Shown: positions 4,472 through 61,100 of the stretch, in pieces | How positions within the stretch are numbered: the first letter of the stretch is position 1 | Layout of the letters: each line of letters starts with the position of its first letter | Source: Vermamoeba vermiformis | Taxonomy: Eukaryota | Reading direction: 5' to 3' | Assembly: GCA_045837725.1 (NCBI GenBank) | Contig: JBEWZL010000076.1 | Span: 310,001 to 374,000, forward strand | Length of the DNA stretch: 64,000 nucleotides | Notes under the pieces: model-generated | Told to the model about the DNA's origin: nothing | Database searches by the model: none | Seen by the model: only the letters and a program-made list of their open reading frames with translations | Program-made: the position numbers and the translations under genes

Positions 4472-5632
4472 TCAGATTGCATCCAGGTCCGCATAAAACA
4501 TGTCCTTCTTTAAATGACACACAATACCACTCGGACAACTTATGCGAGTTGCACCAATATCCAACGAGTCAAATTTTGAATAGAGCAATGCTCGATCAGC
4601 TTCATCCACCGTTGGCACGCACTCTTCGACAACCATTTTCAGCTCATCTAGTAAAGTAGCATAGATGAAAATATCGTAAATCTTTTCTAACGCTAGTATA
4701 CTCTTATAATAAGCAATTGCGCTGTCCAACAAAAGCATCGTAAGAGCTCTAGGCATTTTCTCGGTGGCTTGCCCACGAGCGGATGTGATTGTCTGGAGGT
4801 ACGTAGCTCGATCTTGGAACATTGGTATATCTAATGGTAATATACTATCCAATAGGTACTTGCTCAAAAAGCGGCACATGCGGCCATTTCCGTCTACGTA
4901 AGGGTGGATGTCGACAAAATGAAACTGCGTGAATGCAGCTAGAGCAAACAGGGCAAGTATTTTATCGATAGGTCGTTGATCGTAGTCTATTTTATCGATC
5001 TCTCCACTAATAGCAGTTACTATTACAGTCAGTGTATTCAGCGCTTCTTTGATTACAGAATGGTGAGGAAACAGATGCGCATCTGAAATAGCTTTGCCAT
5101 TGACTACTGATGGCTTAGCCTCGACACCTGTCCTTCGAAACTTGCCAGCGCTATCAATTACTCCTTGGAATAAGCAATGGTGCCATTCGTGAAGCAGATC
5201 TGTGCGTATCTGGCGCGCAACTAATTTTGCGGATGTGGTGCGCGTGCTTTTAATCAGCTCGTAAGTCTGCGTCGTTTCTTTGATATCGAGAGTATCTCCG
5301 ACTATTTCCCCCGTAATTACGAGCTCAGTTTCGTCTACAGAGTTCATTCCTGCAAATTCTATTTTGTTCGTTGTGTAGATCCGTTCCGAAGTTGCTCTCA
5401 GCTCCAATTTACTCCTTATTTCGTTTTCTTTGTAGTATTCATTATAATGTTTAACTAAATCGTGCAGTTCGGCTGCACGCTGCTTTGCTTCAAGATCTTC
5501 GATTGCGAATCCCAAGTAGAAGAACAACGCACGATCAATGCCGTAGCCACGGTCATAGAACCGCTGAGACAAGGTAAGAATATTACTGGCCTTGGGACCG
5601 TTATCTAAATTAGCGAGGATTCGTTGTTCCAT
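4472..5632 (-). CDS. Fic-domain protein (probable AMPylase), intronless, 386 aa
   Basis: Fic motif HPYVDGNGRMCR. The upstream IYTTNKIEFAG resembles the class II autoinhibitory (S/T)xxxE(G/N) helix. First ATG (MEQRILAN) at 5632. Confidence 0.92.
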   Translation of the reverse strand: MEQRILANLDNGPKASNILTLSQRFYDRGYGIDRALFFYLGFAIEDLEAKQRAAELHDLVKHYNEYYKENEIRSKLELRATSERIYTTNKIEFAGMNSVDETELVITGEIVGDTLDIKETTQTYELIKSTRTTSAKLVARQIRTDLLHEWHHCLFQGVIDSAGKFRRTGVEAKPSVVNGKAISDAHLFPHHSVIKEALNTLTVIVTAISGEIDKIDYDQRPIDKILALFALAAFTQFHFVDIHPYVDGNGRMCRFLSKYLLDSILPLDIPMFQDRATYLQTITSARGQATEKMPRALTMLLLDSAIAYYKSILALEKIYDIFIYATLLDELKMVVEECVPTVDEADRALLYSKFDSLDIGATRISCPSGIVCHLKKDMFYADLDAI

Positions 5633-5663
5633 CGTTGTTTTCAATTGCAACAATAATTTATTT

Positions 5664-6667
5664 TTAAAAGAGCGCAATAGCACCGACCAAAGCTGAGGCA
5701 GATAAGGTCAGTTTAATGGCATCGCTCGTCTTTGCAACGGGGGTGCTCTTAGGAGTACTTGTCGGCGTAGCATCGATGGGCTGGCTTGTTGGTTCGTTCG
5801 AAGCAGGTTCGGATGTGATCGGAGCAGCTTGAGGAGGAATCACTTGGCAACCGTTAGCACCTATACCGTCACCAGTATAGCCATCGGGACACGTGCAAGT
5901 AAAACTTGTGCCAGCGTTGAGGCAAGTAGCCAAGGGATCGCACGGATTTAAACTGCAAGCTGTAAAACAAAGTTATTTTTGGCACCAGCCGTTAAATTAA
6001 ATTTAAATTACTTACAATCGCAGTATTCGGTAACTCCGTCGGTTTTGTAAGTGTTATCAGGGCACCAAAGCTCGTACAAAATATTATCAACGGCTGTCCA
6101 GGCATTAGCCCAAAGAATTTTATGGATCGGCCTGTTTCCAACGAATCCTCGCATTTGGTAATTATTTTCACCAGCATTAATAGGGCAGTTAGTAGAACAA
6201 TCGAACATGGTACCATCAATGGCGTAGATGAAGAACGAGCAAGTGGTGCTTGCAAAGCTGTTTGTGTAGGCCACAAAGCTTCGAAGAGGAGGGTCGAAGA
6301 TTAATGCACATTCTGTAGTAGACAGGACAGTGCTCATATAAAAATTGGGAACTTCTGCGGAGTTAGCCCATGGATCCGACCCCTTCCAATATTCATCATT
6401 TATGTAGCTAAAATAACTGCCGCTACCAAGTTGGCAACCAGAGCCAGAAAAGGTAATTAAAGTACCGTTGGCGGTTAGATTCAAAGACCCGTCCACCGAC
6501 GTGTCCCAGGTAAAACTTTCCACCCATTCTTGATCGTCGAACGTAATTTTGCTGGTGAAGGTATTGCCCATATCGGACACTAAAACAAGACCATTGCTGC
6601 CCGGGCAATCCAGGCAGAAAGTGCCCGCCACTAGAATTCCAACCAGAAGTAATATTTTGAAATGCAT
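5664..6667 (-). CDS. Secreted surface protein with EGF-like domain, Ser/Thr/Pro stalk and probable GPI signal
   Basis: Signal peptide MHFKILLLVGILVAGTFC; intron 6015-5960; EGF pattern CSLNPCDPLATCLNAGTSFTCTCPDGYTGDG...C; hydrophobic C-terminus. Confidence 0.85.
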
Positions 6668-7220: not shown

Positions 7221-10459
<3,239 letters not shown>

Positions 10460-28660: not shown

Positions 28661-30455
28661 TTACAAAATTGAGAGGAATCCAATAACAAACATCGAGAGC
28701 GAGAGCGAGCTCCATACTGAGGTACCAGCACTGTGGTTATTATGTTGCGTAGTAGGAGGTAGGTCCGTAATAGGAGTGATTTGACCTGAGGAGGAATTAG
28801 TATTCGGTTGAGTTGCGTCTGGAGTCGTAGGACTAGCAAGGGGAATATTGCCAGTACTAGGAGCATTACCCGTACTCGGCACATTACCATCACTAGGACT
28901 ATTGCTAGTCGGTGAATTACTAGGTGTGGTCGTACTTGGAGTGCCCTCAGCAAGATCCGCAACTACTAATCGCAAGCGCCAGTAGCCTTCGATGAAATTG
29001 AGCGTGAGCGAGTGTTGGCCCGTGGTCAGCACGTCTGTAATGAACGCGTCGCTGTTTTGCCAGTCATTGTAATCGCCGCCCGCGTACAACAACATTGTTC
29101 CGACCTCATTTCCGTCAATTGTAAGGCGGATGTGACGGTTTTCTCCAGCCGGGGCATCTGACGGGAAGGCAGCACGTGCCACTAAAGAGTATTTGCCTTG
29201 TTGTTGAACGTTGATGTTGTATTGCAACCATTCAGTAGGCTCGATAAGACTGATGCACGCGCACTTGTATTGATAGTCGTCCGTGCAATTTGAAATGTCC
29301 ACGGCGTCGTTGCGATAAAATCCACCTTGATTGCCCGCAGTAGTGTCAGAGAATGTCGAATAGAATGCACCTTCAATGACACCAGGGATGTTGATTACGG
29401 ATGGTGGAGGCACGGGTAAAGGTTGAACACTGCCTGAGACAGGAGGTAATTCAGGGACTGGTGGACGTTCGTTGACTGGTGGAGGTGGGGCCCAGTCTCG
29501 TCTGCAAACGTCGTAATCGATAGGAGTCAACGCTGTAAGAGAAAAACAGCAGTTAGATCCGTAACTTTGGAAAAATAAATAAATATATCGTCGCCTAATT
29601 ATTATGAAGCTATTAAATATTCATACCTTCAGCAGGTAGTTCAGTATAGACGCCAAACATGAGACCCAAATAGTAGTACGCTGCTTTCGGCTGGCCGGAT
29701 CAAGCGACCTGAAGTTTTAAGTTGAGCGAAATCACACCCCACACCTACCCCCAAGCGAGTAGCACCTCCCAAACACGCGATGCCGAGCGACTTCTAGATG
29801 ATTGTCGATAAAATTCCTCGCTGCACGTCTCTATCATTCGTTGCGGATCAGTGTCTTGGTTAATCGACCACCATGCGCCCTAATCGTTTTCCTAATTAGA
29901 CTTTGTAATGTGTTTGAAATTTTTAAGACTTACATCCTGAGTTTGGAAAGAGTAGCCAGTGTCAGGCTTAGTAGCATGTTGAATATAGTCCCAGTTAGCA
30001 TGTAAGGCGTAGGTCAGCCATACATAGACCGGATTCTCACCGTTGTTCCAGCAAATGTCCAAAAACGCTCCGTGATCCCTGAACGAACCATCAGCAATTG
30101 CTATTATTTAAACAAATATATATTTTACTTACAATGGAGTGTCGGTATTAGGATACGCCAATAGTATCTGATAGACACGAAGGTTGTTCACGCCGACCGC
30201 TCGCATCAGGGCCAAATCCCGCGTGTGGACCACAGTGAAGTCCTTGTGGAAGACATCTCCCCATTCAGTATATTCGGCGGGAGTAGTACCTGGTGGTAGC
30301 GGACTATAGTTGACGCCTTTGACCGTAAAGGGCTCTCCGTTCAACTGGATTTGTCTGCCTTGTACAGTGAAAGTAGTCGTAGTCTGACTGCGCGCCAAGT
30401 GTAGAATAGCACTAAATAAATATAGTGCTACGAGTATATGCCGCCTTTGAACCAT
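28661..30455 (-). pseudogene. Secreted GH2/GH5-like TIM-barrel glycoside hydrolase + CBM6-like module + stalk/GPI, disrupted in the middle
   Basis: N-terminus FTVQGRQIQLNGEPFTVKGVNYSP...RDLALMRAVGVNNLRVY and barrel end QPKAAYYYL are present. Between them, 29700-29880 has stops and frameshifts and is too short for the catalytic core. CBM-like EWLQYNINV...GKYSLVARAA...GGDYNDWQ...LTTGQHSLTLNF. Confidence 0.65.
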
Positions 30456-45726: not shown

Positions 45727-47398
45727 TTACGAATAATAAGAAAATTTCCTTCGTTCTTCGGCCAATCTCTTCCGTTTCATATTCGTGTGGAGTTTATAGC
45801 CGCCATAAATAGGCCCGCCAATCACTAACGCCGGCACTGCCAATGCGAGGGCTAATACACCACCTACGACCATGCCCGTGCCTATCGCGACTTTCATTCC
45901 GAACCGCTTGCCAGGGCTGATCTGTTCCATGCGCTGGCCTTGCATGCCTGGACAGCCGAGCACGTTGTACAGCTGGAAGTGAGCGGAGGTGTACTTGCCG
46001 CCGCACAGCCAACAGAACTGGTACTGACAGTGCGTGCACGTCATGTGATTGCAGCCGCTGTTCTTCTCAATGGCAGCACGGCACTGCGGACACTGACGCG
46101 TGTTGTGTTTGCGCCACTGGTCGAAGGACTCGTCGGCGTGGCCGTTGACTTGTTTCCACTCGCGGTACTGCTCGCACGTGCCTTGGTGCCATTCCTCGTG
46201 GCACAAGAAACAGAACTCAAATTGACACCTGTCACAACGCATCTGACGGTACTCGGGGTCACCAATCATCGCGTTGCCACAGCTAGGCTTCGGACACCAC
46301 CGTGCATTGGGCTCTTGGCTCAGCGCTGCGTGCAGTGTGAAGTCCTCGTACTTGTGGAAATGTTCTGCCGACACTGCACGCTGGATCTGCTCACAAAATA
46401 TCAGCATCAAATCACTATTATACTGATATAGTATAATATAGGTTATTAGGTTATAATCGTACCTCTGTATAAGAAATTGTTTCGTCACATCTGGGATCCG
46501 GGCACGGAATGTCCAAGACTTGCTTCTCGACAATTTTGAGCTGCAAATATTCAGTGAAACAAGCATTGCAGTATAAATGTTTGCAATGTTTCAATTTGAT
46601 CATTTGAGACCGTGGAAATTCGTCGGTACAAATCGGGCATTCATGAACAGCATTCCAATCAGTATTATCCAGCTCTTCTTGGTCTACGACTAAATAAGAG
46701 TCGAATGTGTCTACTATTTCATCCCTATTTTCTTTCTTTTCGTTGTTATTGGCAAGATCCAGATCAAAGCTCGGATTTGGTTCGTTGACATCTGCGATAG
46801 ATTGTTTCTCGGGATAGTGCAAGTGGTGAATATGCGTGTTAACACGTTCGTGCTGCATGAGGAAATCGGTATCGATCAATTCCTGAAAAGGTATTAGAAT
46901 TTTTCTATTTTTCAAATAATAGGATCTTACGTCAGTAAAGATCCAAAAGAATAATTCAAAGTTTATCTTTATCGATATAACATATTTAAATAATTAGTCT
47001 TACGTGTGCCCAGCCATTTTGAAGCTCGTCGCTCTGTTTCTGAGACGGATTTCGATTGGTACCGTTTTCCAATTCTTTAGAGAAAGCAGGCTTTCTTGCC
47101 GATAATAGAGAAAATTGATAGTCTTCATCAATGGCATCAATTCTATCGTTCAACTCCAGTAAGATCGGCAACAGTTTCGAGTTTTCGATAAAGATCTCGA
47201 TGAGGACTTGAATGCGCTGCTTTACATCGCCGAGTTTCGATCCAAATACAGCAGTATTCTTAATACCATTATCGATATCTGATTTTAGCTCGTTAATTCG
47301 CTCTTTGAGCTGTTGAACTTCTGAATCCAACTCGAATTCCTAAAGTTTCGTTAAATCTCTGTACAAATACAAGTCGTATTGAAGTAACTTACTTCCAT
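45727..47398 (-). CDS. RBR E3 ubiquitin ligase with C-terminal TM helix and GAT-like N-terminus
   Basis: RING1 CPICTD...CKHLYCNAC...CPDPRC; IBR WCPKPSC...CDRC...FCFLCHEEWHQGTC; RING2 CPQCRAAIEKNSGCNHMTCTHCQYQFCWLC; hydrophobic segment near the C-terminus. Confidence 0.93.
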
Positions 47399-47937
47399 AT
47401 TTATATTATGTTAGAGGTGTGGTCACCGTCATTGAGCTAGTTCTGAATTCCCTGCAATGATTTTCTGGTTGTGCTTTTTTGGGCACGTGGCCGATTTTCT
47501 TTTAATATCCATCATTGTTGAAAATACAGGACATAATAATTTGAGCTGCACGACGAATAGATACAAAGTACAATGCATTAATTATGAAAATAAAAATTTG
47601 GTGCATCTTGTTGTTTTACAATTCTTCAAAATTAGCGCTCTAGACCCGGATATAATTATTTACTACAGTGTATAATTATTACGGCGCATTCTATGGCACG
47701 AAGAAAATTACGTCATAAAGGGAAAACTTTTGATGCATCTTGCCAAAAGTAGCCGTTGAGCTCAAATTCAAACATGAGGTTCATCGTAGCTTACCGCAGA
47801 AGCAATACGATATACATATATATAAGGCAAAGATATGACGGTCCGTGGTCGTGTGGTACATCCGCGGGCCGCTTGACACAAAAAAATTGTTGCTCTCCAG
47901 TTTTAACCTTTGAATGTACTGTGATCAATAGACCACC

Positions 47938-49258
47938 ATGCAAGCACTATGGGATAGATATATAGCACTGTTTCCTTATGAGGATAAGTGGATCTTTGCG
48001 AGTAAGTTTTTGAACGGATCTTGATCTCGAAATCAATCGGTCGTATTAACTTGATTATACAGTCAACTCATTTATTATACACGAAATAACATTTTGGACT
48101 GCAAATGGACTGTTATTTTTGTGTCATTACATGGGATGGTTTTCAAAATACAAAATCCAAGGCTCAGAAATGCCTTCAGCTCGATTAATTAAGCAGTGCC
48201 TCATAGAGTCAGTCATAAATCATTTTATCGTACAGGTAAGAATATCATTAGCGATTTTTTCAAAAATCAAATCGAAATTGAATTCCTAGCCAGATTTGAC
48301 ACTGGTGTTTTGAAAGACACCATCAATATTCGCAATAATTCAATAAAAATATAGAAACTTAATTGAATTACTATTTCTATCCATTGGCTCACATTTCCCT
48401 TCGGGATTGACTCTCCACGGAGATCCGAAACTTTGACATTTGACCTGTAAATCATTAATAGCAGTATTTTTATATAGATCCCTACTCTACTGCTATTATA
48501 CCCGCTCTTCGCCAAGACAGGCCTCAGAATACACGAGCCACTGCCGAGCGCCTTTGAAGTTGTTTGGCAGAACGTAGTCTTCTTTATATTATGTGATTTT
48601 ACGTTCTATTGGTCTCATCGTGCATTCCACTCGCCGTTGTTGTTCAAAAAAATTCATTCGCAGCATCATCGATTTGTAACTACGATTGGTATTGCTTCGG
48701 AGTTTGCGCATCCGGTATGAAACTTGAAACTAATGCTATATCATCAGGTCATATACTAATAGCATATAATATGCAGGTCGAGCAAGTTGTATCTTCACTT
48801 ATTTCAACTCTGGTAAGCAATTCAAAAGATCCTAAATTCTTTTTCGCTTATTATTTTTCGTTCCGTAGATTGGCCCGATGCTATTAAATATTCACTTATT
48901 TACATATATAGTCTATATGTTCATAAGAATATTAGAGACTATTGATGCGCACTCAGGATACACTTTTCCATTAAGGTACGCGGATCTCTCTTGTAGCGAA
49001 CGATTCTAACTAAATTGTATGATAGTCCGTTTAGACTATTACCTCATATATTTTTGGGGCCTGAAGGTCACGATTTTCATCACAGGTAAGCTCGTGTAAC
49101 GGATCTGTTATTTTGCTAGGAACCAGTCTAATGATTTTTTCAGCCATAACGATGGAAATTACGGCATGTTGAAGTTTTGGGACTGGATAATGGGCACTGA
49201 TAAGGCATTTAACAAATGGAAACGAGATCAAGCTGAACCAAAAACGAAAAAGGCCTGA
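47938..49258 (+). CDS. Sterol C4-methyl oxidase / fatty-acid hydroxylase family enzyme
   Basis: His boxes YWSHRAFH, IHSQHH, EFAHPVE, DAHSGY, HDFHHSHNDGNYG...WDWIMGTD across seven exons. Confidence 0.92.
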
Positions 49259-49560
49259 TCGAGACCTATGCTAACAAATTATTAAATAAATATTCTCGTA
49301 CGGTTATTCGAAATGCTAATTACATTGAACGCTATCCTTTAATTTATTTTACGAGAATTTAAAGGTAATTGATTTTGTTGTTACCTTATATAAAACGCAG
49401 AGGTCCTGGGCATGCCCTTAGAATATACCTTCGTACAGGCAGTGCCACCTAAGTTACAGTAACTGCAGGCAAATTTGCTGCTCGGGCAGCGGAGTTGCAG
49501 AAACTAAACTCGATCGAAGCTAAAACCCAAATTTAGAACGAAAGTTCAGTCAGTTCTAGA

Positions 49561-49566
49561 CACGTG
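49561..49566. promoter_or_regulatory. CACGTG E-box/G-box upstream of the Crinkler-like gene (one of six similarly placed copies)
   Basis: GACACGTGAC about 90 nt upstream of the ATG at 49652; see the finding on recurrent placement. Confidence 0.35.
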
Positions 49567-49651
49567 ACTTTTTGAAATTATTGCTGCATTTCTAGAGCAA
49601 CAAAAGAAACTCGACCACTCCACTCTTATTCACGCAACCAAGCTGTCGAAC

Positions 49652-52299
49652 ATGCTCCACATCCTCACCACCGCATGCAAAAAGGTTTTCGGGGCAAGCC
49701 GACCATTCTCGGTTGGTTTTAAGAACTACAGGAATAAACTGCACAAAAAGAAGCGTAGTAATTTTAAATAATTATTTAGAATATGCGTTAATTTTTGCGC
49801 AGCCGAAATGTTTGTCAAAGGTGTCATCTCGCAGATTAACCGGTAAGAAATGCATTATATGGCCGTAAACGTTGCCAATTCCTCGCACATTATTTAATTA
49901 GACCGCTGGTTAAATTAACAATTTTTAGGGAATTAATTTACGAAAAACCGAAATCTGGATTCCAAATTCGTTCCTATTCGGTAAATCAACGCTCAGACGA
50001 TTTGTACAGCCAAAGAGGTACGAAGAATAACAATGTTCGAAAGATTTTAATCATAAGCAACAGATGAAGTACGCCATTGGCAGGCCGAACAAATTGCCGG
50101 CTGGATGCAACGCAACGCAAATCTATTGACAAGCCAAATCCAAGTAATCTTGGACCAGGCTATGACTGGCAGAGACATCTTAGCCAAAGAAGTGGTGTCG
50201 TTCCAAACACTTCATGCTGAGCATCCTAAAGCTACCCGCGAGTTGTGGGAAGCCTTTCAAAAGTTTCGGATGGGTCAGTACTGAAGTCACAAATGATCCT
50301 GTTGTTAACAATATTTGCAGCTTATATGATTCCCACTGAGCTACGTCCTGAACAAGCTTCATTCTCTCCTGACACCAACGTACTTGACATACCTTTTGTT
50401 GGCCGTGCTGCTTCAATTAAAAAAGCTCTTGTTGCTGTACAAACACACGCAAACACTGCCATCTACTCAAAGAGCAACAGCAATATTGATGAAATTCGTG
50501 TTGGAAACTCTTGTCTTTTTGCAGTTGGTGCACCTGGAATTGGCAAGACTAGATTTGGAGAAGAATTTCCACAACTGCTAGCTAAGCAAGCTACTGGCAA
50601 TCTGGAACAAAAGTTACAGAATGTTAGAACTGTACGACTCACATTCAAGGGTGGCAAAAACATTAGTGCTCAGGATACCAAATGGGAAGACTCTACAGAC
50701 CAAGTCAACTGGATTTTGACGTCCAGAGCAATTCATGCTGTTTACAACATCAACCAACCTTATAAAGACTGGGCACTGGAGCTTTCAAAATTGTTAGGCA
50801 ACGACTTGCCACAGCACTTCAACATGAACAAATTCATTGAAGAGTTGCATCGCAGAGATCAATCGGCAACAACAATTTATTTTCACTTAGATGAAGTTCA
50901 ACAGGTCAAACTACTACCACCAGTGGTTGGTGCAGATGTGATTAGAACACTCTCAACTCTCTATGCCAAGTACAACTCAGAAAAGCTCTTGACTCTACTG
51001 CTCTTCACTGGTACAATACTGTCTGATATTAAGTCTGTACTTGAGAAGCAACTTGGTGTTGGAAGCTCTGTTGACTTTCCTTTGGTTAGCTTGCCGATGG
51101 AGACACTAGAAGAAACGCAAATAAATGACATTATTTCCTCAATGAAGAGAGATGGCAAATTACCATGGTTGCGGGATGATTGGAATGAATCCACATCTTT
51201 TAAGAAGCTGGTGGCTTACCTTGGTGGAGTGCCACGTCTTCTGGAGCTGTTGTTCCTTGCTGGCACCATTACCTGTGACATAAACGACATGGCAACAATC
51301 TTGAGCACCTCAACTGAGGAGAGATACTCAATTAACACTGGCCAGCCTTCAGTCTACAATGCATGCTGCCTAGCTCTTTCTGGCAAGCAGTTTGAACTCA
51401 CTGATAAGCTTCCAAACGCCCCAGAACTGACAGTGGAGCAGCTATGCTCAAATGGCTATCTTTTCTTGGCTCCTGGTGGGCAGCTAAAGGTTCCATTTGT
51501 TTATGTTGGCTTGACAGTGTTGCCTGGAGACTTTGCTAAAGGAGATTTTGAAGATAAAATCACAGCCATGCGCCAAAAGCTTCTTACTCCAACTGGAACA
51601 TTGCTTTGGCAAGATTTTGAGGCATTCACATTGGTCTACTCTATGGTACGAGTCAAAGCCCTTCTACACCTCAAATACACAACATTCACAGTCAAAGATT
51701 GCTTCCATCATGCCCATACAATGTCCAAAAACATTGAACCATTGCAATTTAAACTGGCCGAACGAGATTATGTTGAACTTGGCAGTAGATGGCCAGAAAG
51801 TGGATGGCCAGTTTCCAGATTAAAAGGTCCAGTTAATGTGGAAGATATCCTTGACTCTGTATTCCTCAATGCTAGTGGAGCTTCATTTGATGGCTTTGAA
51901 TTTGTGGAACTGGCTGACAAACAAGAATATGTCATCTTTGCACACCAAAATAAGTACACAGCTGATGGTAAAACAGTTTTGTCATCAAAATCTATTGCTG
52001 AAGAAGCAGAGAAAGCACAAGCAGCATTTCAGAAATGGAAGAAGTCAGTGGAGCCTAATGACAAAAACTTGATGGCCCTAAAGGAAGCCACAAAGCAACT
52101 TATTCTCGTTATCTTCACTAATTGCAATGTAGTACTAGACCCTGTCCATCCTATGCCACATGAAAATATAATTGTTATCAACAATTACAAGCACTTTGGT
52201 CCATTCCAAGCTGTCACTAAATTTTTTCAAGTGCGAGATGACAAGGATGGAAAGAATGTGCTTGATGGATCAAAAACTAATTCTGTTCCCAGCCCTTGA
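49652..52299 (+). CDS. Crinkler/RHS (CR)-type protein: presequence + SAM header + P-loop NTPase + PD-(D/E)XK REase
   Basis: Five exons (49652-49755, 49803-49842, 49929-50017, 50064-50273, 50321-52299). SAM-like EVRHWQAEQIAGWMQ...AMTGRDIL; Walker A GAPGIGKT; Walker B YFHLDEVQ; LFTGT; LGGVPRLLE; nuclease WQDFE...NASGASFDG...HQNKYT. Confidence 0.85.
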
Positions 52300-52379
52300 A
52301 ATGTACATGTCTTGCAATGTTCATAACCACCTGGTTTTTTTTGAATAAAGTTAGCCTTTTTTCTTTATTTTGAATAGCA

Positions 52380-53753
52380 CTATCTAAACTGTCCACTAGT
52401 TGAGTTTGTTTTCATCTTCATGTGGTTGGTGATACGACAGGTAAGAGCTGATTTGAGACAGCAGGGCTTGCACAACGAGTTCGAGCAATTGGCATTAATT
52501 GAACATCCGCAATTGCATTGATAGCTTCGTATTTCAATAAATCACTGATTAGTGTTATTTTCAGGCACTTTGTCATCTTCAGACACTGACATTTCAGGTT
52601 GTGGCATGGCTGTAAATGTTTTGAGATTTGTTCGTCACATACAAGTCATCAAATGTTGCCTTTGTCTCAGCTTTCCATAGATCTTGTAATAGAGGAGTTG
52701 CTATTACTGACAGCTCTTGGCCATTGAATCTCCGTAAGTACTTCTTGTTGTCATACATAAAGTGAAAACTGTCGCCTAAGACATTGGCACGAGGAAATGA
52801 CGTCATGCAGGCATTGCGCAGGGTTTGTTCAAAGCCAGCTAAGATGAATTCAGGTCGCCATTGATTTCGAGTACGTTTAAGCAAGAGACTGAAGAATGTG
52901 TTGTAAGTTTCTGCCGTTCGCTCTTCTGATATTAACCAAGCGACGCCCAGAGCATACTTGGCATCAGGAGGCTTGATTAAGAGTGATGCTAAGTATAATT
53001 CACCTTCAATGACATCAAAAGTACCATCGATAAATGCTGTACGACCAAATTTGACCAGGAGACTGACAGCGTCGGGATCCATGCAAACTATCAACACTTG
53101 GGGGTGAAGTATAATTGACAATACGAAGTTTCCATGCATCGATTTGATATTAAATAGGGCATCGGAGCTAGGAAAAGCTTTGTGGCGATGTCTGTAAGTC
53201 ATTTGCCGGATGTTGTTCCCAGAAGTTACATTCTTCGCTGAAATATCTTCTCCTGCATTATCCGCTTCGAGAACTAAGGTCTTGTGAATACGTGATGGAG
53301 GTACTCCGTGGTCTATCATTGCTTTTTTGGTTTTTTTTCCTGCGATAGGTAAGTGCTCGCTATCACCGCCAGGGCAGCTGTAATACTTGCGAATGACTGA
53401 TCGGGACTTATTCCCCTTGAGCTTTTTACTTCCGTAATTCCACCAATTGAAGTCCGACCTATCTAAAGTAATATTATTAATTTATGGTTATTTGGCTTAT
53501 TTAGTTGAAGACCGCTAATATTAATTTTAAAAGAAATCGAATAAATAATTCAAAATATATTGATACTTGAAATTAATACCTGAATCGGAGGGGGTTATGT
53601 ATCCTTGACTATCTTCATCACTACTAGATGCTATAGAGTGCGAAATACTATCGTGGACCGTGTCGCGATCTAGATGCTGATTCGCGAAATTAGTATTGAG
53701 CGCAGGAATGTAACTTTGCTAGTACCGATAAGCGCTGAGACGTCATTGTGCAT
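52380..53753 (-). mobile_element. Decayed Mutator (MULE) transposase gene with WRKY-like and SHI/LRP1-like zinc fingers
   Basis: Exons 53753-53726, 53669-53580, 53462-about 52630. DFNWWNYGSKKLKG...RKYYSC; MULE core AFIDGTF...ERTAETY...ILAGFE (second Asp lost)...GDSFHF; third catalytic region absent; out-of-frame tail CNCGCSINANCSNSLCKPCCLKSALTCRITNH. Confidence 0.8.
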
Positions 53754-53949
53754 TATTTGAGATAAAGGAAGTGACATTTGTGGCCTTCTGTTCGTGAGAG
53801 TTGGTAAAATGAAATCGAATTTTTCATGAAAGAAGACCAAATTTCAGGACAGCAATTTAATGAAAATTTTGTGATCAGCATTAATTTTCAATCATAATTT
53901 CATAAATACCACACGCAACAATATTTGTTGAAGATCTAACCGATCTGCA

Positions 53950-56194
53950 ATGGCAAAAAGAAGTAATAGTGTTACAGGCCTGTTTGGCGCGATTACCGAT
54001 GAAAATAAAGTTCCGCCAGTGATAGAAGAGTGCGTTGACTTCTTAGTGGACCATGGTAATTAATATACGATACGAATCATCGAAAAGATTTTGTGTAACG
54101 GTTATTTTATTGCAGCATCCACGAAGAACTTGTTTTTTGAGACCGGAAATGAGACGAGATTACAGAACTTGAGAGATGAAATTATGAGAGGTAATTAATA
54201 ATCATTTTAATCAATTTAAAATCGAAAATTTGATCCCTAAAATTTGCCGGCGCGATAGATCTTGCTTAAAATAAAAGTCATAAATTGCATAATATTACCC
54301 TCGTGTATTAATACTTTTTATAACTAGGACGAACGAAAGAAATACCCGATGAAGAAGATCCTCATACAATCGCACAACTTTTCTTGCAATGGTTCAAAGC
54401 AGCAAAGTCACCCTTAATCCCGTCTTCATTATCGCTAAAATTATACGCGGCTAGTCTTAGTAAGTCACACTTATACATCTATCGGCAATCGTACGCAATT
54501 ACAGCGGATCCGAAAAAATCTTTTTGATTTGACAACTCCATTTCAATTTGAAATAATACTTGATATAATCTATATTAAATTTAAGTAAACATTTACTTAT
54601 TTTGAGCTCATATGATCAATTTCTGTGAACGAAACGAAATTTTTTTTTCGATCGGATCTTGCTAGCTTAATTCCTCGTGAATAGTTAAATAATCTAATAT
54701 CATTTCTTAGAATCCACAACGGAATTGGTCAAAATGTTCAAAGAAATCGTTGAGTTCTTAACACCTGCTCGTCGCGGCATTTTGAAGCGAACATTGCGCG
54801 TGCTGCACATGATTTGTTTGCACGGAGAAACCTCCGATAAAGACGGAATAATTGCAAAAGAACTGTCTAAGGTATTAACACACGATATTTAATTAAGTAA
54901 CAACAATATAATAATTTTTTTTGATAGTTGTTCAGACCGTTTTTGTTGGATCTGGGTGACGGTAAGTAATTAATTTTAATATGATTAATGGTCTAATTAT
55001 GTTCACAGACGAGGCTAGAAACAAAATAGGCGAACAAGTTGTTATGCAAGCCATTATCAATTACAAAGAGTTGTTCAAATATCGCACGGTACGCGCACTT
55101 TTCAACCACGAAATCTCATTTTGATCGATTTTAACTCCGATCTCTTATCGATTTTTCCATATTAGGCAAGTGCTCCTCCACGTGTTATTGTCCGCCAAGA
55201 CACTGAACCAACCCCACCGAATCCAGAGCTCGAGAAAGCGATGGCTGAAGGCTCGGTCATTTCTCCAAAAAGAGCCAAGAATTTCACCGCTGAAATTGTC
55301 AAATATTACCTCGCACACAAATACAACGAGCTGTTTGCTAAAGGCGTGCCTAGTCCGCATCCGTGGTGGAAAAATGTACCCGTGTTCACCCCTGACTCGT
55401 TGAAGGCCCTGGTCGACTCGTGGAAAGAAAAAGAAGAAGTTGCACAGTTGATTGAAAAGGCGCAGAAGAGTCCTTTGATTGGTAAGTACAAATAAGGAAA
55501 TATCGGTCGAAGACATAGTTCGACAGGTGTCACAAGTTGTACTGCCAAATTTTTTCACGCACTCGAAGCGCGAGATATTTTTCGTTTAAATATTTTCTTA
55601 TACCATTATTATTGATACTAATATAATATTATAGAGGAGCATATTGAAAAAGAGCCTGGATCTCTCAAGGCCGAGAAGAAATTGCCGGACACAGCCCTCG
55701 AATGGGTCACAGAAGAAGCCGTGGGAGATTACGATGCAGATTATTTCCTAAAAAAGCAACAGGAAGAAGAAGAGCTACGAAAACGCGAGCAAGATGAACG
55801 AAGAAAAAAAGCCGATGAAGAATTTGAACGAAAAAAACGCGAGAAAGAGGAAGAAGAGAAAAAGAAACTTGAAGCGAAACGAATTGAAGAAGAGAAGAAA
55901 AAAGAATTGCGAAGAATTGCCAAAGAACAAGCGGAAAAAATCGTCGAAAAAGAACAGATCGAGAAAAAGAAAAAACACGAAGAAGAATGGAAAAAACGTG
56001 AAGAAGAATTGGCACGTCAACGAGAAGAATACAAAAAAGCACATCCAGAAGAAGATAACGATGAATATGAAGAGGTGATTACTGTAGTTAAAAAAGTGCC
56101 CGCCAAAAAATCATCGAGTCCAACTTCACCGCGAGATCTGACTGGTGCCACTGATGCAGGAGACACAGCTAACAAAACAAGTCCTAGAAATTAA
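53950..56194 (+). CDS. RhoGAP-fold protein lacking the arginine finger, with E/K/R coiled-coil tail
   Basis: LFG...VPPVIEECVDFL...TKNLFFETG...DPHTIAQLFLQWFK...PLIP...AKELSKLFRPFLL; long charged C-terminal exon 55635-56194. Confidence 0.8.
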
Positions 56195-56292
56195 ATTAGA
56201 CTACTAGTCGTATCATAATGTACAGATGTATTTAAACCAACACTAATATTTTACGATTTTTATTTTTGCCTACAAAATTTGTAACGGCTTTC

Positions 56293-57645
56293 CTAATTAG
56301 GAAATATTTTCTTCAGTAAAGGACCATAACCTAACAATTCGAATATGTCAAGCCAAATCTCGTGCGGTAGTAACTGCCATACAAAGCTATGTACGAAATT
56401 ATGCATTAATATCACTACGTTTCCGCTAGCAATTTTTTTGTTAATTCGACACTCTTCTTGGATCCGCTTCAATCCTCTGCTCGTCAATGAGCAATTAAAG
56501 AATTGTAAGGATAATATTAACCGATTGGTTTGGACTAAATTCAGCCATTGACCTTCTGATATTCCTGCGTTGAATGGTAACATGATCCGCTGCATGGATC
56601 TGCTTTGTACCAAGGCGTTGGAAATTGGCGTCAGATCCAGGCTGAAATTTTTGACGTCGAACCAGAGTTGCTGTAGTGTGTTATTCTGATGTATCATATT
56701 CGCAATGTCGTTAATGCCTCTTTGAGTTATATTATCATCGCCTAATGTTAGACTTCGTAGTGTTTGATTGACCCTCAGTGCGTGAGACAAATACTTGCAA
56801 AGCTTGTCGGAGATGCTTCCGTTGAAATTCGTGACTGTCAATTTAATCAATGAGGAATTATACTGCAGGATATTGCCCCATGACTTGCACGTCAAAGTGG
56901 ATGCTGCGGATCTAATCTCAAACGCGAGACTTGTGTATTGCAAGGGCTTCTTCTCCATGAGCTCTATCAATTGATCTGCTACATAGTCGTATCCTAATAA
57001 GGTTATTTGGTTCAGATGCTGATTTGCCATTATCCCGCGAATTACAAGTTGAGTGCATTCTTGCGACCGAACGTCTTCAGAATAGTAGTGTGCAAGCCTA
57101 AAGACCTTCAAGCTCGGATGATTCGCTAAAACATCGCGAATAGCTTCATAGTAGATCATACTAATTGAGTTATACAAGTGCAGATCCAAGCAAGTCAAGT
57201 TTGATTTGTTGCGTATGACGTCGCACAGGTCAGTGATTGAGTGGGGAGGGTAGCATGAAAAATTAAAACAGACTTCTTTAATCGCTGGATTAGTTTCTAA
57301 TTCTTGCAGGAAAATTGAACTCGGTTGCGGTTCTTTATCGCTACTCCAAATTTTAATTCTGTCGAATGGCTCAAAATTTCTTCTTGCGTTGATGACTGAG
57401 TCCGTATGATTATTGAGTAAACCTTCAAGAATTAATGACCGCGGCATCGGGAAATTGTTTCTTATTAGTTGCAATATAAAGTCTGTTGCATGGACGGTGT
57501 CGTAGGTACTCAAATAGTCTAGCAAAATGAACTTCTTCAACTGCTGGTCCGTCAAGTTAAATTTCTCCTGGATGCTGCGGTAACGTTTCAGATCCTGCTC
57601 TCCGAATTAGAATACAATTCGAAAACAATTATAATATCCTACCAT
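56293..57645 (-). CDS. RNI-like LRR protein with C-terminal F-box-like motif
   Basis: ATG-only exon 1, then one long exon; repeats NSSLIKLTV, NQTLRSLTLGDDNITQRG, NNTLQQLWF; ends LLPHEIWLDIFELLG. Confidence 0.8.
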
Positions 57646-58162
57646 ATTGTTGCTATCAATTGATTGTAATTGATTATTATTAGCCGAACAATAAAGTATG
57701 TTCTGCGGGTTCTCAACTTTTTCGTGTCACAAAACGAGGAACTGGTGGAAATTTCTCGTTGAATTACAACGGTTAAGTATACTTAAGATTCCCCTTAAAT
57801 GTTTTAATTCAAGGAGAAAATAAGATTTATACTCCAAAACAATGTCAGAACAAATCGACAAGATATATTCGTCGTGCTGGCAACGTAAGCTTGCCATTAG
57901 TTCGAGTGGCAATCTGACAGGAAAACTTAATACCTTCAATTATGCGTAATATAATCACTGCATGGTACTTACTTGTTGCAACGAGTGCTTGTCTGCGTCA
58001 GAACCATAACATCGATGGTGAAGATCTGGATCTGATCCGGTGATTCGCCATTCCCTAAGACAATCCAATAGGTGATCGCTCCATAGTAGTCTGTGGGTCC
58101 ATATGATGTCACTTAGAAGAAGTCCTTGTGCGTACCTAACGCGAGATCCAGATCCAGTTTTT

Positions 58163-61100
58163 TCACGTCCTCACATTAGAATGTAGTGCGGTTCTAGTTC
58201 AAATAGAAATACAATTAATTTATTCAAAATGACTAATACGCACCACTTTTGAGGTGAGTAGTGGTTCTGACATCAGTGTCTATAGTCGTTTTCTTCCAGC
58301 CTTTGTTGCGCGAGAAGTTGACGAAAATGGATGTGGCCTTGAAAAGCAAAATGAAAATGACGGCAGGACCCAACTCTACGATGTATATGAATATAAGCAC
58401 TCCAATAACACTTCTGGCGGTGGCTTGTTCGAATGAGATCCAGATCAGACTGGCGGATTGAGCCAGGAGGCAGATGGTGCAGACCGATGAAATTATAATC
58501 AGCTAAATAAATAGCGTTAATAAATATATATATATTTAGAAGGCATAATGCCTACCTTAAGGAGCTTTCTGTATCTTGCAGTTCGTCGAATTTTGTCTTC
58601 AGCATCCAGTTCCATCGCGAGCTTGTTCGACTCTCGCATCATCTTGATAATCTTCGTGCCATAAACAGCAAAGAGTATCGAGAAGGTCAAGCAAAATGCG
58701 GAGAATACAATGTGATAAATGATCGTCACAATCTCAGCGCCAGTTTGTTCGACGACAAAGTCCGAGGCACAGCTGAGCACGTCATTGGGACCATCAGGCT
58801 GCGCTAAGAATACGGCCAATAAGACTATAAAGGCTGCGGCAATAAAGGCGTTGACGGCTATGACTACTGGCTTGAGTCTATTGAACGACTTGTCGTGCCC
58901 TGAGGTCATCGTAAAGTGACAGATCTCGGCCCTAAAAACAACTCGTGTTAATTACATGAGACTACAAAACACCTTCCTACGTACCATCGCAACACGATCA
59001 ACGAGTAGATGCACAAATAGAACATTGCGGGCAATTCGGAGAATAAAACATCCGCGACACGTGACTGCTCGAGAATGCCGTTGGGAAGCAGCATCAAATA
59101 CAAGAACCGATCTATAATATGCATTAATTAAGACTTCACCTAAGGACGTATATGATGATTATTTACCTAGTAACATTAAGCCAAGGACGATGAGAGCCAA
59201 GCGACCGACGCGACAGAAGGACTTGGTGTGAGTTCTACGGTGTTCCTGCGCGTGATGATAAATGTGCCAGATGGTGAGTGCCATGCCGAGCAAGTACAAG
59301 AAGGCACCAAAGTAAATCACAAAGATCTCGCCAGGTTGCAATGTTTGAATGAACGACGCGCTCTCCCAGTCTGCAATCAAACCTACTGGGAACACGACCA
59401 AGCCTGATGACGTGACATTTGCACACGCGTATCTTGCACTCGAGTTAGCACGTGCAAATTAATGGGAATAGTAATAGAGGTACTTACTGATCGCCAAACT
59501 TCAAGTTCAATCCGAGAGCTGTGAAAGAAGTCCAATCTTCGTTTGGCATGGCAAGGTCGAGCACTGTCAAATCCATATCGGAGTTTTCATCTGCTGGCAA
59601 CTTGACGCACACTTTCAGGGTGCCTGTGGCGAAGTCACCTGGCGGATCCACGCTCAAACCATCACCAAGAATTTCACCGACAGCAACACCGTCCTCGTTC
59701 TTGATGAATCGAACTTGTGCAGCTTTGCCTGCTTGAGACAACGAGACCGTCACGCTGGATAAGGTCGCCAGACGTCTTTGCAAGAACTGAGACTGCGGTA
59801 CTTGTGCCACAGTAATGTCCATGCAGTCACTCGTGCGACTCGTAAACGATTGCTAATAACACATTAGAACAAGGCTCTCATAGTGATAGTCGGTCCTTAC
59901 CTCAACAGTGAGGTAGCCTAATTGAACGTCGTAGGTGGTAGGTACGTTATTGCACGCTTGAACAACAGAAATGACGGACTCAGTGATGCTGGAGAAACAC
60001 TGCGCAGAGCCCTTGTCGAGGCCACAGTCACACGCTAAGAGGTCCAAGGAGGAAATGAGCTTGTTGTAGCGGCAGTAGATGTTGGTCGTGACAATGTTCG
60101 AGTACTTTCGTGCAGTAGCACGTCTGAACATTGACTTGAACATGGTTTGATTGAGCGCTGGTGTCCAAGTGTTCGCTGTCGTGAAATTTCGCGTGGCCCA
60201 GCTGAACGGGATAAATTGTGACGGAACCCATCGAGACTATGAGGGTTAATTAATTAGCGATTGTCGAATGCAACTACAATAGTACTTACTGGTCGATAAG
60301 AGTATATGGACTCGTAGCGTGCGTTACACTTGGTGCACTCGGACTCGTTCTTGAATGTCACGCCACTAGGTCTTTTGTAATCAAATGACTCGGTGTACGT
60401 GCCCTCAATGCACACACTGCCTGCTCGACGACAAGTTTCTTCACCGCGTTTTTGCGTGCTGATCCACCAGCCACTCTCTGCTGCACAATCAGTCTGGTTC
60501 AGCGTACCATCATAACAGCCTTCAGGAGTCCATCGCTCGCCACTGAAACAATCGCCATTGGTTCTGAAGGGAAGATGGCAGCCGACATGATTGCCGCATG
60601 TGCCAGTAGTGGTGCAATTGTATTGATCACACGTTGAACAACCGTCGCAGTAGAAAGACGACAAGCACGTGTCCTGTACTTGGTAGTTAGTACGGAGTTA
60701 ATTCTATTGCAATAATAGTAGTTCCTACTTGAGCAACGAAGCTGTAGCTCGGAGCACAGAATCCAACACTCTCGCAGCTCGTTTTCGTCATCAAGACGTC
60801 CGTCAATAAAGCACTGCCAGGCCACCAACTGGTCTTGCCAGCACCAGCAGCCATGCACAATTGATAGTTGCCAATAGTGACGTCAGCGCAGAGTCCATAA
60901 GTCACCGAGTCAATCGACCATTGTTGCCAGGTCAACTGCAGTCCAGTAATATTCGCAATGGTGCAGCCTGTTTGCGTGGTGATTGATGGCACGTAACACA
61001 CAGGGTCACAGGCACCAGCTAACTGTTCGTCAGCAGTGCAATATTGAGCCGGGAAACACACTGAATGCGCGGTACTGTTTGCCTTGCACTTCTCTTGGAA

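Follow-up and report, generated by a model that had tools for sequence, protein, structure and literature searches.

The DNA analysed here (the window) is a 64,000-nucleotide stretch of the Vermamoeba vermiformis genome (GenBank assembly GCA_045837725.1, contig JBEWZL010000076.1, positions 310,001–374,000 of the forward strand), and the subject of this report is a gene at window positions 49652–52299 (+) that encodes a basic N-terminal extension, a SAM domain, a P-loop ATPase and a C-terminal domain with a restriction endonuclease (REase) fold. The five-exon model of the gene has GT..AG borders throughout, 806 codons and a single, terminal stop, and its four introns measure 48, 86, 46 and 47 nt. 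In the spliced model, exon 1 (49652–49754, 103 nt) opens with ATG and contributes 34 codons, whose product, MLHILTTACKKVFGASRPFSVGFKNYRNKLHKKK, contains seven lysines, two arginines and no aspartate or glutamate and is a candidate targeting peptide. Intron 1 lies at 49755–49802 and contains an in-frame TAA at 49769–49771. Exon 2 (49803–49842, 40 nt) holds an alternative in-frame start, ATG 49808, and exon 3 (49929–50017, 89 nt) the RSYS of a QIRSYS motif (49969–49980). Exon 4 (50064–50273) encodes the divergent SAM domain.

The long exon 5 encodes the two larger domains. Its first part (50321–51534) begins with a PFVGR motif and continues with the P-loop ATPase, followed by a helical and probable winged-helix region; the remainder (51535–52299) comprises the PD-(D/E)xK nuclease-fold domain and the stop codon. 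The sequence motifs fall at 50527–50550 (GAPGIGKT, Walker A), 50890–50895 (the D-E of LDEVQ, Walker B) and 51223–51237 (GGVPR) in the ATPase, and at 51619–51621 (E), 51889–51891 (D) and 51946–51954 (QNK) in the nuclease. A possible polyadenylation signal, AATAAA, read from the sequence alone, is located at 52344–52349 (+), 45 nt past the stop.

Contigs of run X1 were used to examine transcription. Their joints coincide with introns 2, 3 and 4 of the nuclease gene, including junction 49842|49929 at the 3′ end of exon 2 and both junctions of exon 3, as well as with all four introns of an upstream fatty-acid-hydroxylase gene. Because the contigs skip exactly these introns, X1 represents RNA, and the nuclease gene, or its ~97% identical twin, is expressed. 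The fatty-acid-hydroxylase gene (48478–49258 (+), Pfam 6.8e-10) has four RNA-confirmed introns of 50–62 nt and is covered by X1 at a greater depth than the nuclease gene. Raw RNA runs X14–X16 gave 6, 4 and 7 reads, all from the upstream gene and zero at 49359–52500, and are uninformative on expression of the nuclease gene. An earlier reading of this DNA, made from the letters alone (hereafter the initial annotation), had proposed four small 5′ exons ahead of an intact NTPase-REase core. Every feature it described is present, with the motifs QIRSYS, GAPGIGKT, LDEVQ, GGVPR and D...QNK all at the positions it gave; RNA contigs confirm transcription of exon 1 and removal of introns 2–4, while intron 1 is retained in the sole contig that crosses it.

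The AlphaFold (AF2) model of the whole long exon, built on 18 sequences, was confident, with a predicted local distance difference test score (pLDDT) of 85.8 and a predicted template modelling score (pTM) of 0.84. A Foldseek search with the first ~400 residues of this exon returned 92 matches in the PDB with E values of 0.001 or less. The leading ones were 2qen (2.5e-6), ORC/Cdc6 and CED-4 (up to 1e-4), and TnsC and plant NLR resistosomes were also among them. Across the 18 sequences, G72, G74, K75, R77, D190, E191, R305, E433 and K544 are invariant or at least 90% conserved, and the near-invariant columns spell out a Walker A motif of the form G-x-P-G-x-G-K-[TS]-R, the Walker B pair D190-E191, G302 and R305; an F-V-G-R motif lies ahead of Walker A. 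The protein thus carries the hallmarks of AAA+/STAND ATPases, namely Walker A (GxxGxGK[ST]), Walker B (hhhhDE), a post-core arginine, and a lid followed by a winged helix. Searched against PDB sequences, the family profile (A1) gave only P-loop-level matches (Lon, Cdc6; E of 0.0037 or more). By its model, the domain is predicted to be an ORC/Cdc6-STAND-type P-loop ATPase with lid and winged helix, and the intact NTPase of the initial annotation is borne out by the confident model, the Foldseek matches to Walker ATPases and the conserved Walker residues.

The nuclease domain was modelled separately (residues 405–658, pLDDT 84.8). When this model was compared with 48,161 chains by VIA-align, the top match was AF1548 (1y88) at Z 8.2, and 18 chains reached a Z of at least 5. 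Next came MspJI, Cdn1, FokI, N.BspD6I, Can2, Card1, Avs3, AspBHI, Hjc, NucC and HamA at Z 6.3 to 4, a range in which, by the program's own caveat for Z under 8, a match can mean a common arrangement. Judged by title, the majority of the 50 VIA-align matches listed are restriction-type or related nucleases. Residues E433, D523, Q542 and K544 are invariant among the six closest sequences; in the model, E433 is in a helix, D523 is just ahead of strand 524–530, and Q542 and K544 are in the following strand. We assign the domain to the PD-(D/E)xK class because the match list is consistent and the E433...D523...Q542-x-K544 series occupies the expected helix and strands. The earlier REase call (D...QNK) therefore stands, and the model speaks for a PD-(D/E)xK nuclease fold at the C-terminus, with a conserved E...D...QxK set that is predicted to be catalytic. 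Four distant homologues carry an extra C-terminal helix-hairpin-helix (HhH) motif, which points to DNA as the probable substrate.

Exon 4 alone scored below the Pfam threshold for SAM_PNT (E 0.03–0.05, 14.1–14.6 bits versus a cut-off of 24). The orthologous exon at a related metagenomic locus, L003, exceeded the Pfam cut-offs of SAM_PNT, SAM_2 and SAM_Ste50p (25.2 bits versus 24). A profile of three such exons (A4) matched the solved SAM domains of ETV6 (7.5e-5), Aveugle (2.9e-4, over its full length) and CNK (1.1e-3), and the two nearest Atlas clusters to exon 4 were both SAM, at 0.89. At L003 and at a second related locus, L001, the exon occupies the same place and is linked to the long exon by an intron of the same phase. 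Taken alone, the SAM exon gave a single irrelevant match among PDB sequences (E 1.6), and a word-based search with it against longer proteins returned nothing at E ≤ 0.01. A two-copy complex prediction of the exon scored 0.03, with its own fold uncertain in that prediction and the alignment unused. On the profile evidence we regard the SAM header as genuine but divergent, and the L003 Pfam matches and the three-sequence profile back the "SAM-like" label given to it at first.

A word-based search with the long exon found four matches, and a HMMER scan of 1.84 billion representatives found 26 at E ≤ 0.001, including eight at E ≤ 1e-30; a further search with alignment A1 added only three, all weak. 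The relatives occur solely in eukaryotic or unassigned sequences, so that the family looks small and apparently restricted to eukaryotes. A protein in NCBI differs from the long-exon product at 22 of 658 residues (97% identity); since its predicted start falls within intron 4, the 5′ exons appear to have been missed in its annotation. Scanning metagenome contigs with a six-sequence alignment (A3) revealed three loci, L001 (44% identity to the window protein), L002 and L003 (both 33%); L002 and L003 are 99.8% identical to each other. The same A3 patterns, applied to viral and prokaryotic contigs, gave 595 and 58 pattern matches, none of them a relative, and PADLOC and NCBIfam models gave nothing at E ≤ 0.01 against eight family members.

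The window, L001 and L003 share one layout, consisting of three small 5′ exons, the SAM exon and one long exon. The lengths of the first four exons, taken modulo 3, are 1, 1, 2 and 0 in all three loci, with identical intron phases, and the three small exons measure 103/40/89 nt in the window, 127/52/89 nt in L001 and 115/37/65 nt in L003. L002 and L003 differ at six positions, all in the 5′ exon/intron region (L003 429–735) and none in the 1.9-kb main exon; both one-base indels between them fall within the modelled first intron.

We interpret the locus as an expressed five-exon host gene for a modular ATP-dependent DNA nuclease, composed of a basic extension of roughly 65–77 residues, a SAM domain, an ORC/Cdc6/STAND-like ATPase and an REase-fold domain, and assign this reading a probability of roughly 0.6, with ATP-dependent cleavage as the predicted activity. 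In the proposed mechanism, the SAM domain and the ATPase would gather copies of the protein on DNA in a nucleotide-dependent manner, and gathering would switch the nuclease on, as in Crinkler/RHS-type modules, which join an NTPase, a helix-turn-helix (HTH) and an REase, and in bacterial nuclease-bearing defence proteins of the STAND (signal transduction ATPases with numerous domains) class. Several results weigh against this interpretation. With the nuclease domain as query, the best Foldseek match was MspJI at 1.1e-2, and none reached 0.001 or below. Pfam hits on the ATPase were AAA families below threshold only (AAA_22, 22.8 bits versus 27). None of 21 homologues, and none of the three pieces of the window protein, carries the Pfam Crinkler header PF20147. 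In the coding part of 49673–51571, the X1 RNA contigs show 12 listed differences from the window, nine non-synonymous and three synonymous; such a ratio between ~97% identical copies could indicate fast protein evolution or a relaxed constraint. We discard a pseudogene reading, since the open frame extends through 806 codons in this gene and 668 in the 97% copy, with the catalytic residues kept at 33–44% identity.

The NTPase-HTH-REase module characteristic of the C-termini of the Crinkler/RHS (CR) superfamily is present according to the structure models and fold searches. According to excerpts of PMC5289972, the most frequent Crinkler C-terminus is NTPase + HTH + REase, toxicity is attributed to the REase and its regulation to the NTPase, and the class is present in free-living eukaryotes as well, with helical headers besides the ubiquitin-like one (this and the other papers given by accession are cited from excerpts). 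Because other helical headers occur (PMC5289972), the missing PF20147 does not by itself exclude the CR superfamily. Among Atlas clusters, those closest to the long exon come from eukaryotes (Rhodophyta, Mucoromycota); a cluster named "Crinkler family protein", in which 45% of members carry PF20147, appears at rank 15 (0.95), sharing 211 of 256 features. A CR-type core is thus plausible, on domain architecture and one language-model lead rather than on sequence-level homology, and the protein can be read as such a core in which a SAM header replaces the ubiquitin-like one. The initial annotation, which had placed the protein among Crinkler-type effectors, is therefore upheld in its SAM, ATPase and nuclease calls and lacks the support of the Pfam header.

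The family-defining paper for CR-NTPase and CR-REase is reportedly that of Zhang et al. 2016 (NAR 44:3513). Titles and the openings of abstracts on Crinkler proteins with SAM or REase domains or mitochondrial targeting, a set outside the Zhang paper, mention no SAM-headed or mitochondrial CR protein. The Crinkler header motif is LxLFLAK. In one distant homologue, P0023, the N-terminal ~140 residues comprise a basic start and then a ubiquitin-like-looking stretch, unrecognised by Pfam, with an L-T-L-F-H-N-G that recalls this motif.

Several known systems resemble the protein in part. The CR effectors (Phytophthora CRNs and Rhizophagus RiCRNs) have the same order of P-loop NTPase, helical/winged-helix region and REase-fold nuclease; unlike them, the window protein has a SAM domain and a basic extension instead of a ubiquitin-like header and is the product of an intron-bearing gene that is single-copy in the window. 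Rhizophagus CRNs carry REase5/6/8, NTPase4 and HhH domains (PMC6131194, excerpts), of which HhH recurs in the distant homologues of the window protein. The bacterial antiviral STAND proteins Avs3 and Avs4 likewise fuse a STAND-type ATPase to an REase-fold nuclease (nuclease Z 5.7 and 4.4), and on the ATPase side NLR and CED-4 structures match the window ATPase; the nuclease is N-terminal in Avs proteins and C-terminal here, and the window protein lacks a repeat sensor domain. The archaeal Walker ATPase PAB2304 (2qen, Pfam ATPase_2) and ORC/Cdc6 provided the best ATPase matches (E 2.5e-6 to 4e-5 over 338–390 aligned columns, 11–16% identity) and have neither nuclease nor SAM domain. AF1548, the best nuclease-domain match (root-mean-square deviation 2.8 over 106 residues, 8% identity), is a small archaeal protein that has no assigned function and no ATPase. 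Finally, SARM1 combines in a single polypeptide a mitochondrial localisation signal at the N-terminus, oligomerisation through SAM domains and an enzymatic effector that is destructive. The window protein would follow the same logic, its targeting being a prediction, and differs in being a predicted ATPase-gated nuclease rather than a TIR NADase, in having one SAM domain instead of two, and in having no ARM repeats.

The regions ahead of the SAM domain in the window, L001 and L003 are 72–89 residues long, S/T-rich and strongly basic (net charge +11 to +14). They do not align with one another in sequence and share character only: all three begin with M-[LF]-x-x-L, and their first acidic residue comes at position 36, 62 and 39, respectively. 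Excerpts of PMC7723863 list low acidity, positive amphiphilicity and R-2/R-3 cleavage motifs as features of mitochondrial presequences, with stress on arginine. Each peptide contains two R-x-[FYL]-[SA] sites, six in total versus 0.57 expected, a number reached by none of 20,000 shuffles; the occurrence of a site within the final 20 pre-SAM residues of all three was matched in 1 of 20,000. The late site lies at residue 14 of the 89-nt exon in the window (R-S-Y-S) and at residue 15 in L001 (R-P-L-S). The hydrophobic moment of residues 1–18 is 0.40–0.48 across the three peptides. A signal peptide was rejected, as uncharged runs within the first 35 residues extend to 5–6 at most. In two distant homologues, P0023 and P0024, the predicted N-termini (first 20–68 residues of predicted gene models, inspected by eye) are basic and acid-poor and lack R-x-[FYL]-[SA].

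The most likely role of the extension, judging from these features, is that of a cleavable organelle-targeting peptide. The motif class [FYL][SA] was broadened, by the R-3 consensus, from the R-x-Y-S noted at first, which tempers the enrichment, and the lysine-rich exon 1 of the window departs from the arginine stressed in PMC7723863. Of the presequence initially proposed, the basic, acid-poor start and the R-x-Y-S-like site gain weight from the conserved character and the motif enrichment in three loci; as to an amphiphilic helix, the maximum helical moment of the window peptide is ordinary and is reached by 20% of shuffles. This last result would equally suit a protein that stays in the nucleus or cytosol, its S/T-rich pre-SAM region serving as a disordered DNA-binding, nuclear-localising or phospho-regulated tail and its R-x-x-S sites as kinase or 14-3-3 sites. 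The basophilic-kinase pattern R-x-x-S fits the four enriched sites (of six) that end in S, L001 carries a K-K-P-K-R cluster, and, according to excerpts of PMC5289972, every Crinkler protein localised so far accumulates in the nucleus. However, the other two sites end in A and cannot be phosphorylated, the basic clusters are not positionally conserved among the three orthologues, and the uncharged hydrophobic M-[LF]-x-x-L start and acid-free runs of 35–61 residues recur in all of them. We regard a nuclear or cytosolic destination as possible, at clearly less than even odds. Mitochondrial import, overall, seems to us slightly more probable than that, though likewise well below even odds.

The targeting peptide depends on whether exon 1 is coding. 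The only contig over exon 1 (X1 record 2; 243 nt, depth 2.8, seven differences) begins at 49641, which shows that exon 1 is transcribed; the initial annotation would have been contradicted by transcripts that start downstream of this exon, and this contig starts upstream of its ATG. It runs continuously from 49641 to 49841, with intron 1 kept and intron 2 spliced, and the exon 1–2 junction (49754|49803) is absent from the X1 contigs. With intron 1 retained, the frame from ATG 49652 is 39 codons long, closing at TAA 49769–49771, and ATG 49808 follows as the next in-frame start. Exon 1 could accordingly be non-coding, its ATG opening a 39-codon upstream open reading frame in the 5′ leader and the protein starting at ATG 49808 (MFVKG...) without a presequence. 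The intron 1 donor, GTAGTA, would be in keeping with this, and in-frame models come easily by chance: unconstrained enumeration produced 520 in-frame GT..AG models, and an in-frame model alone therefore proves nothing. The exon models of L001 and L003 were themselves predicted from sequence with simple splice filters and chosen among 21 and 70 candidates, the phase-matching model being rank 1 for L001 and rank 2 for L003.

The comparison of loci nevertheless speaks against such a leader. The contig evidence on exon 1 is one contig of low depth, and because contigs show presence rather than absence, a spliced form may also exist. The top-scoring filtered models of L001 and L003 also open with an upstream ATG exon that is basic and acid-free, and the phase pattern 1, 1, 2 recurs in the top-ranked model of L001 and the second-ranked one of L003. 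L003 depends on exon 1 for a start codon, there being no ATG in its modelled exons 2 and 3. GC content is 0.47 in exon 1 and 0.23 in intron 1. Within the window, acid-free starts with a net charge of at least +7 occur in 6 of 260 ATG-initiated open reading frames of at least 34 codons, and with at least +9 in 2 of 260. What lifts the predicted exon 1 above chance is that two orthologous loci repeat both its three-exon layout and the character of its peptide. A non-coding exon 1 is, in our view, rather unlikely, and we consider exon 1 and the N-terminal extension to be quite probably coding. Retention of intron 1 would then give a shorter isoform from ATG 49808 without the targeting peptide.

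The comparative evidence thus strengthens the idea of import, which is unproven, and the one transcript contig over exon 1, with its intron kept, weakens it. In its fullest form it would describe nuclear-encoded SAM-ATPase-REase nucleases, forming a small family in eukaryotes, that enter mitochondria by a cleavable presequence, with intron 1 retention switching between imported and non-imported isoforms and assembly through SAM domain and ATPase leading to cleavage of mitochondrial DNA (mtDNA), that is, a SARM1-like suicide or organelle-DNA-elimination device derived from a Crinkler-type core. This composite is tentative and, taken as a whole, unlikely. The roles suggested in the initial annotation (suicide defence, anti-endosymbiont activity or mtDNA elimination) are conjectural.

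NTPase-nuclease modules of the Crinkler type have chiefly been described from pathogens, as effectors that act in host nuclei. In the present case, a core of this probable type is preceded by a SAM domain and a conserved presequence-like peptide, and the gene that encodes it is a conserved host gene with introns. If import takes place, the protein would be a nuclear-encoded, ATP-gated restriction-type nuclease directed against an organelle genome, and a candidate for either the regulated destruction of mtDNA or suicide defence by way of the mitochondria. If it does not, the protein would still be a clean and rare example of a SAM-headed conflict nuclease, whose domain logic parallels that of SARM1 and bacterial STAND nucleases.

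A MULE transposase domain (Pfam 1.2e-6) is encoded by a 295-codon frame at 52594–53481 (−), which is convergent with the nuclease gene and 295 nt past its stop, with no terminal repeats nearby. No inverted repeats bracket the nuclease gene in 46000–60000, where only one short, non-bracketing pair was found (53880–54199), and no second copy of the gene is present in the window. Because its introns are conserved over 33–44% identity, it is single-copy in the window and it has no bracketing repeats, the gene behaves as a host gene and is not an active transposon. It is highly improbable that the gene is a component or a recent passenger of a mobile element (MULE or a TnsC/TnsA-like module) and serves transposition rather than defence: the nearby MULE frame on the opposite strand, the TnsC ATPases among the structural matches (E 1.3e-4) and the excerpts that derive the Crinkler core from transposons (PMC5289972) or link a Crinkler-like gene to flanking hAT elements (PMC12957317) are set against the host-gene features above, an open reading frame beside L001 that matches neither MULE nor any other Pfam family, and the absence of relatives on viral and prokaryotic contigs with the patterns used.

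Elsewhere in the window, long open frames on the reverse strand encode a Fic/DOC domain (4472–5707), CBM6/CBM35 modules (28661–29620) and IBR domains (45727–46590), and a tRNA gene at 9366–9436 (+) is the sole Rfam match.

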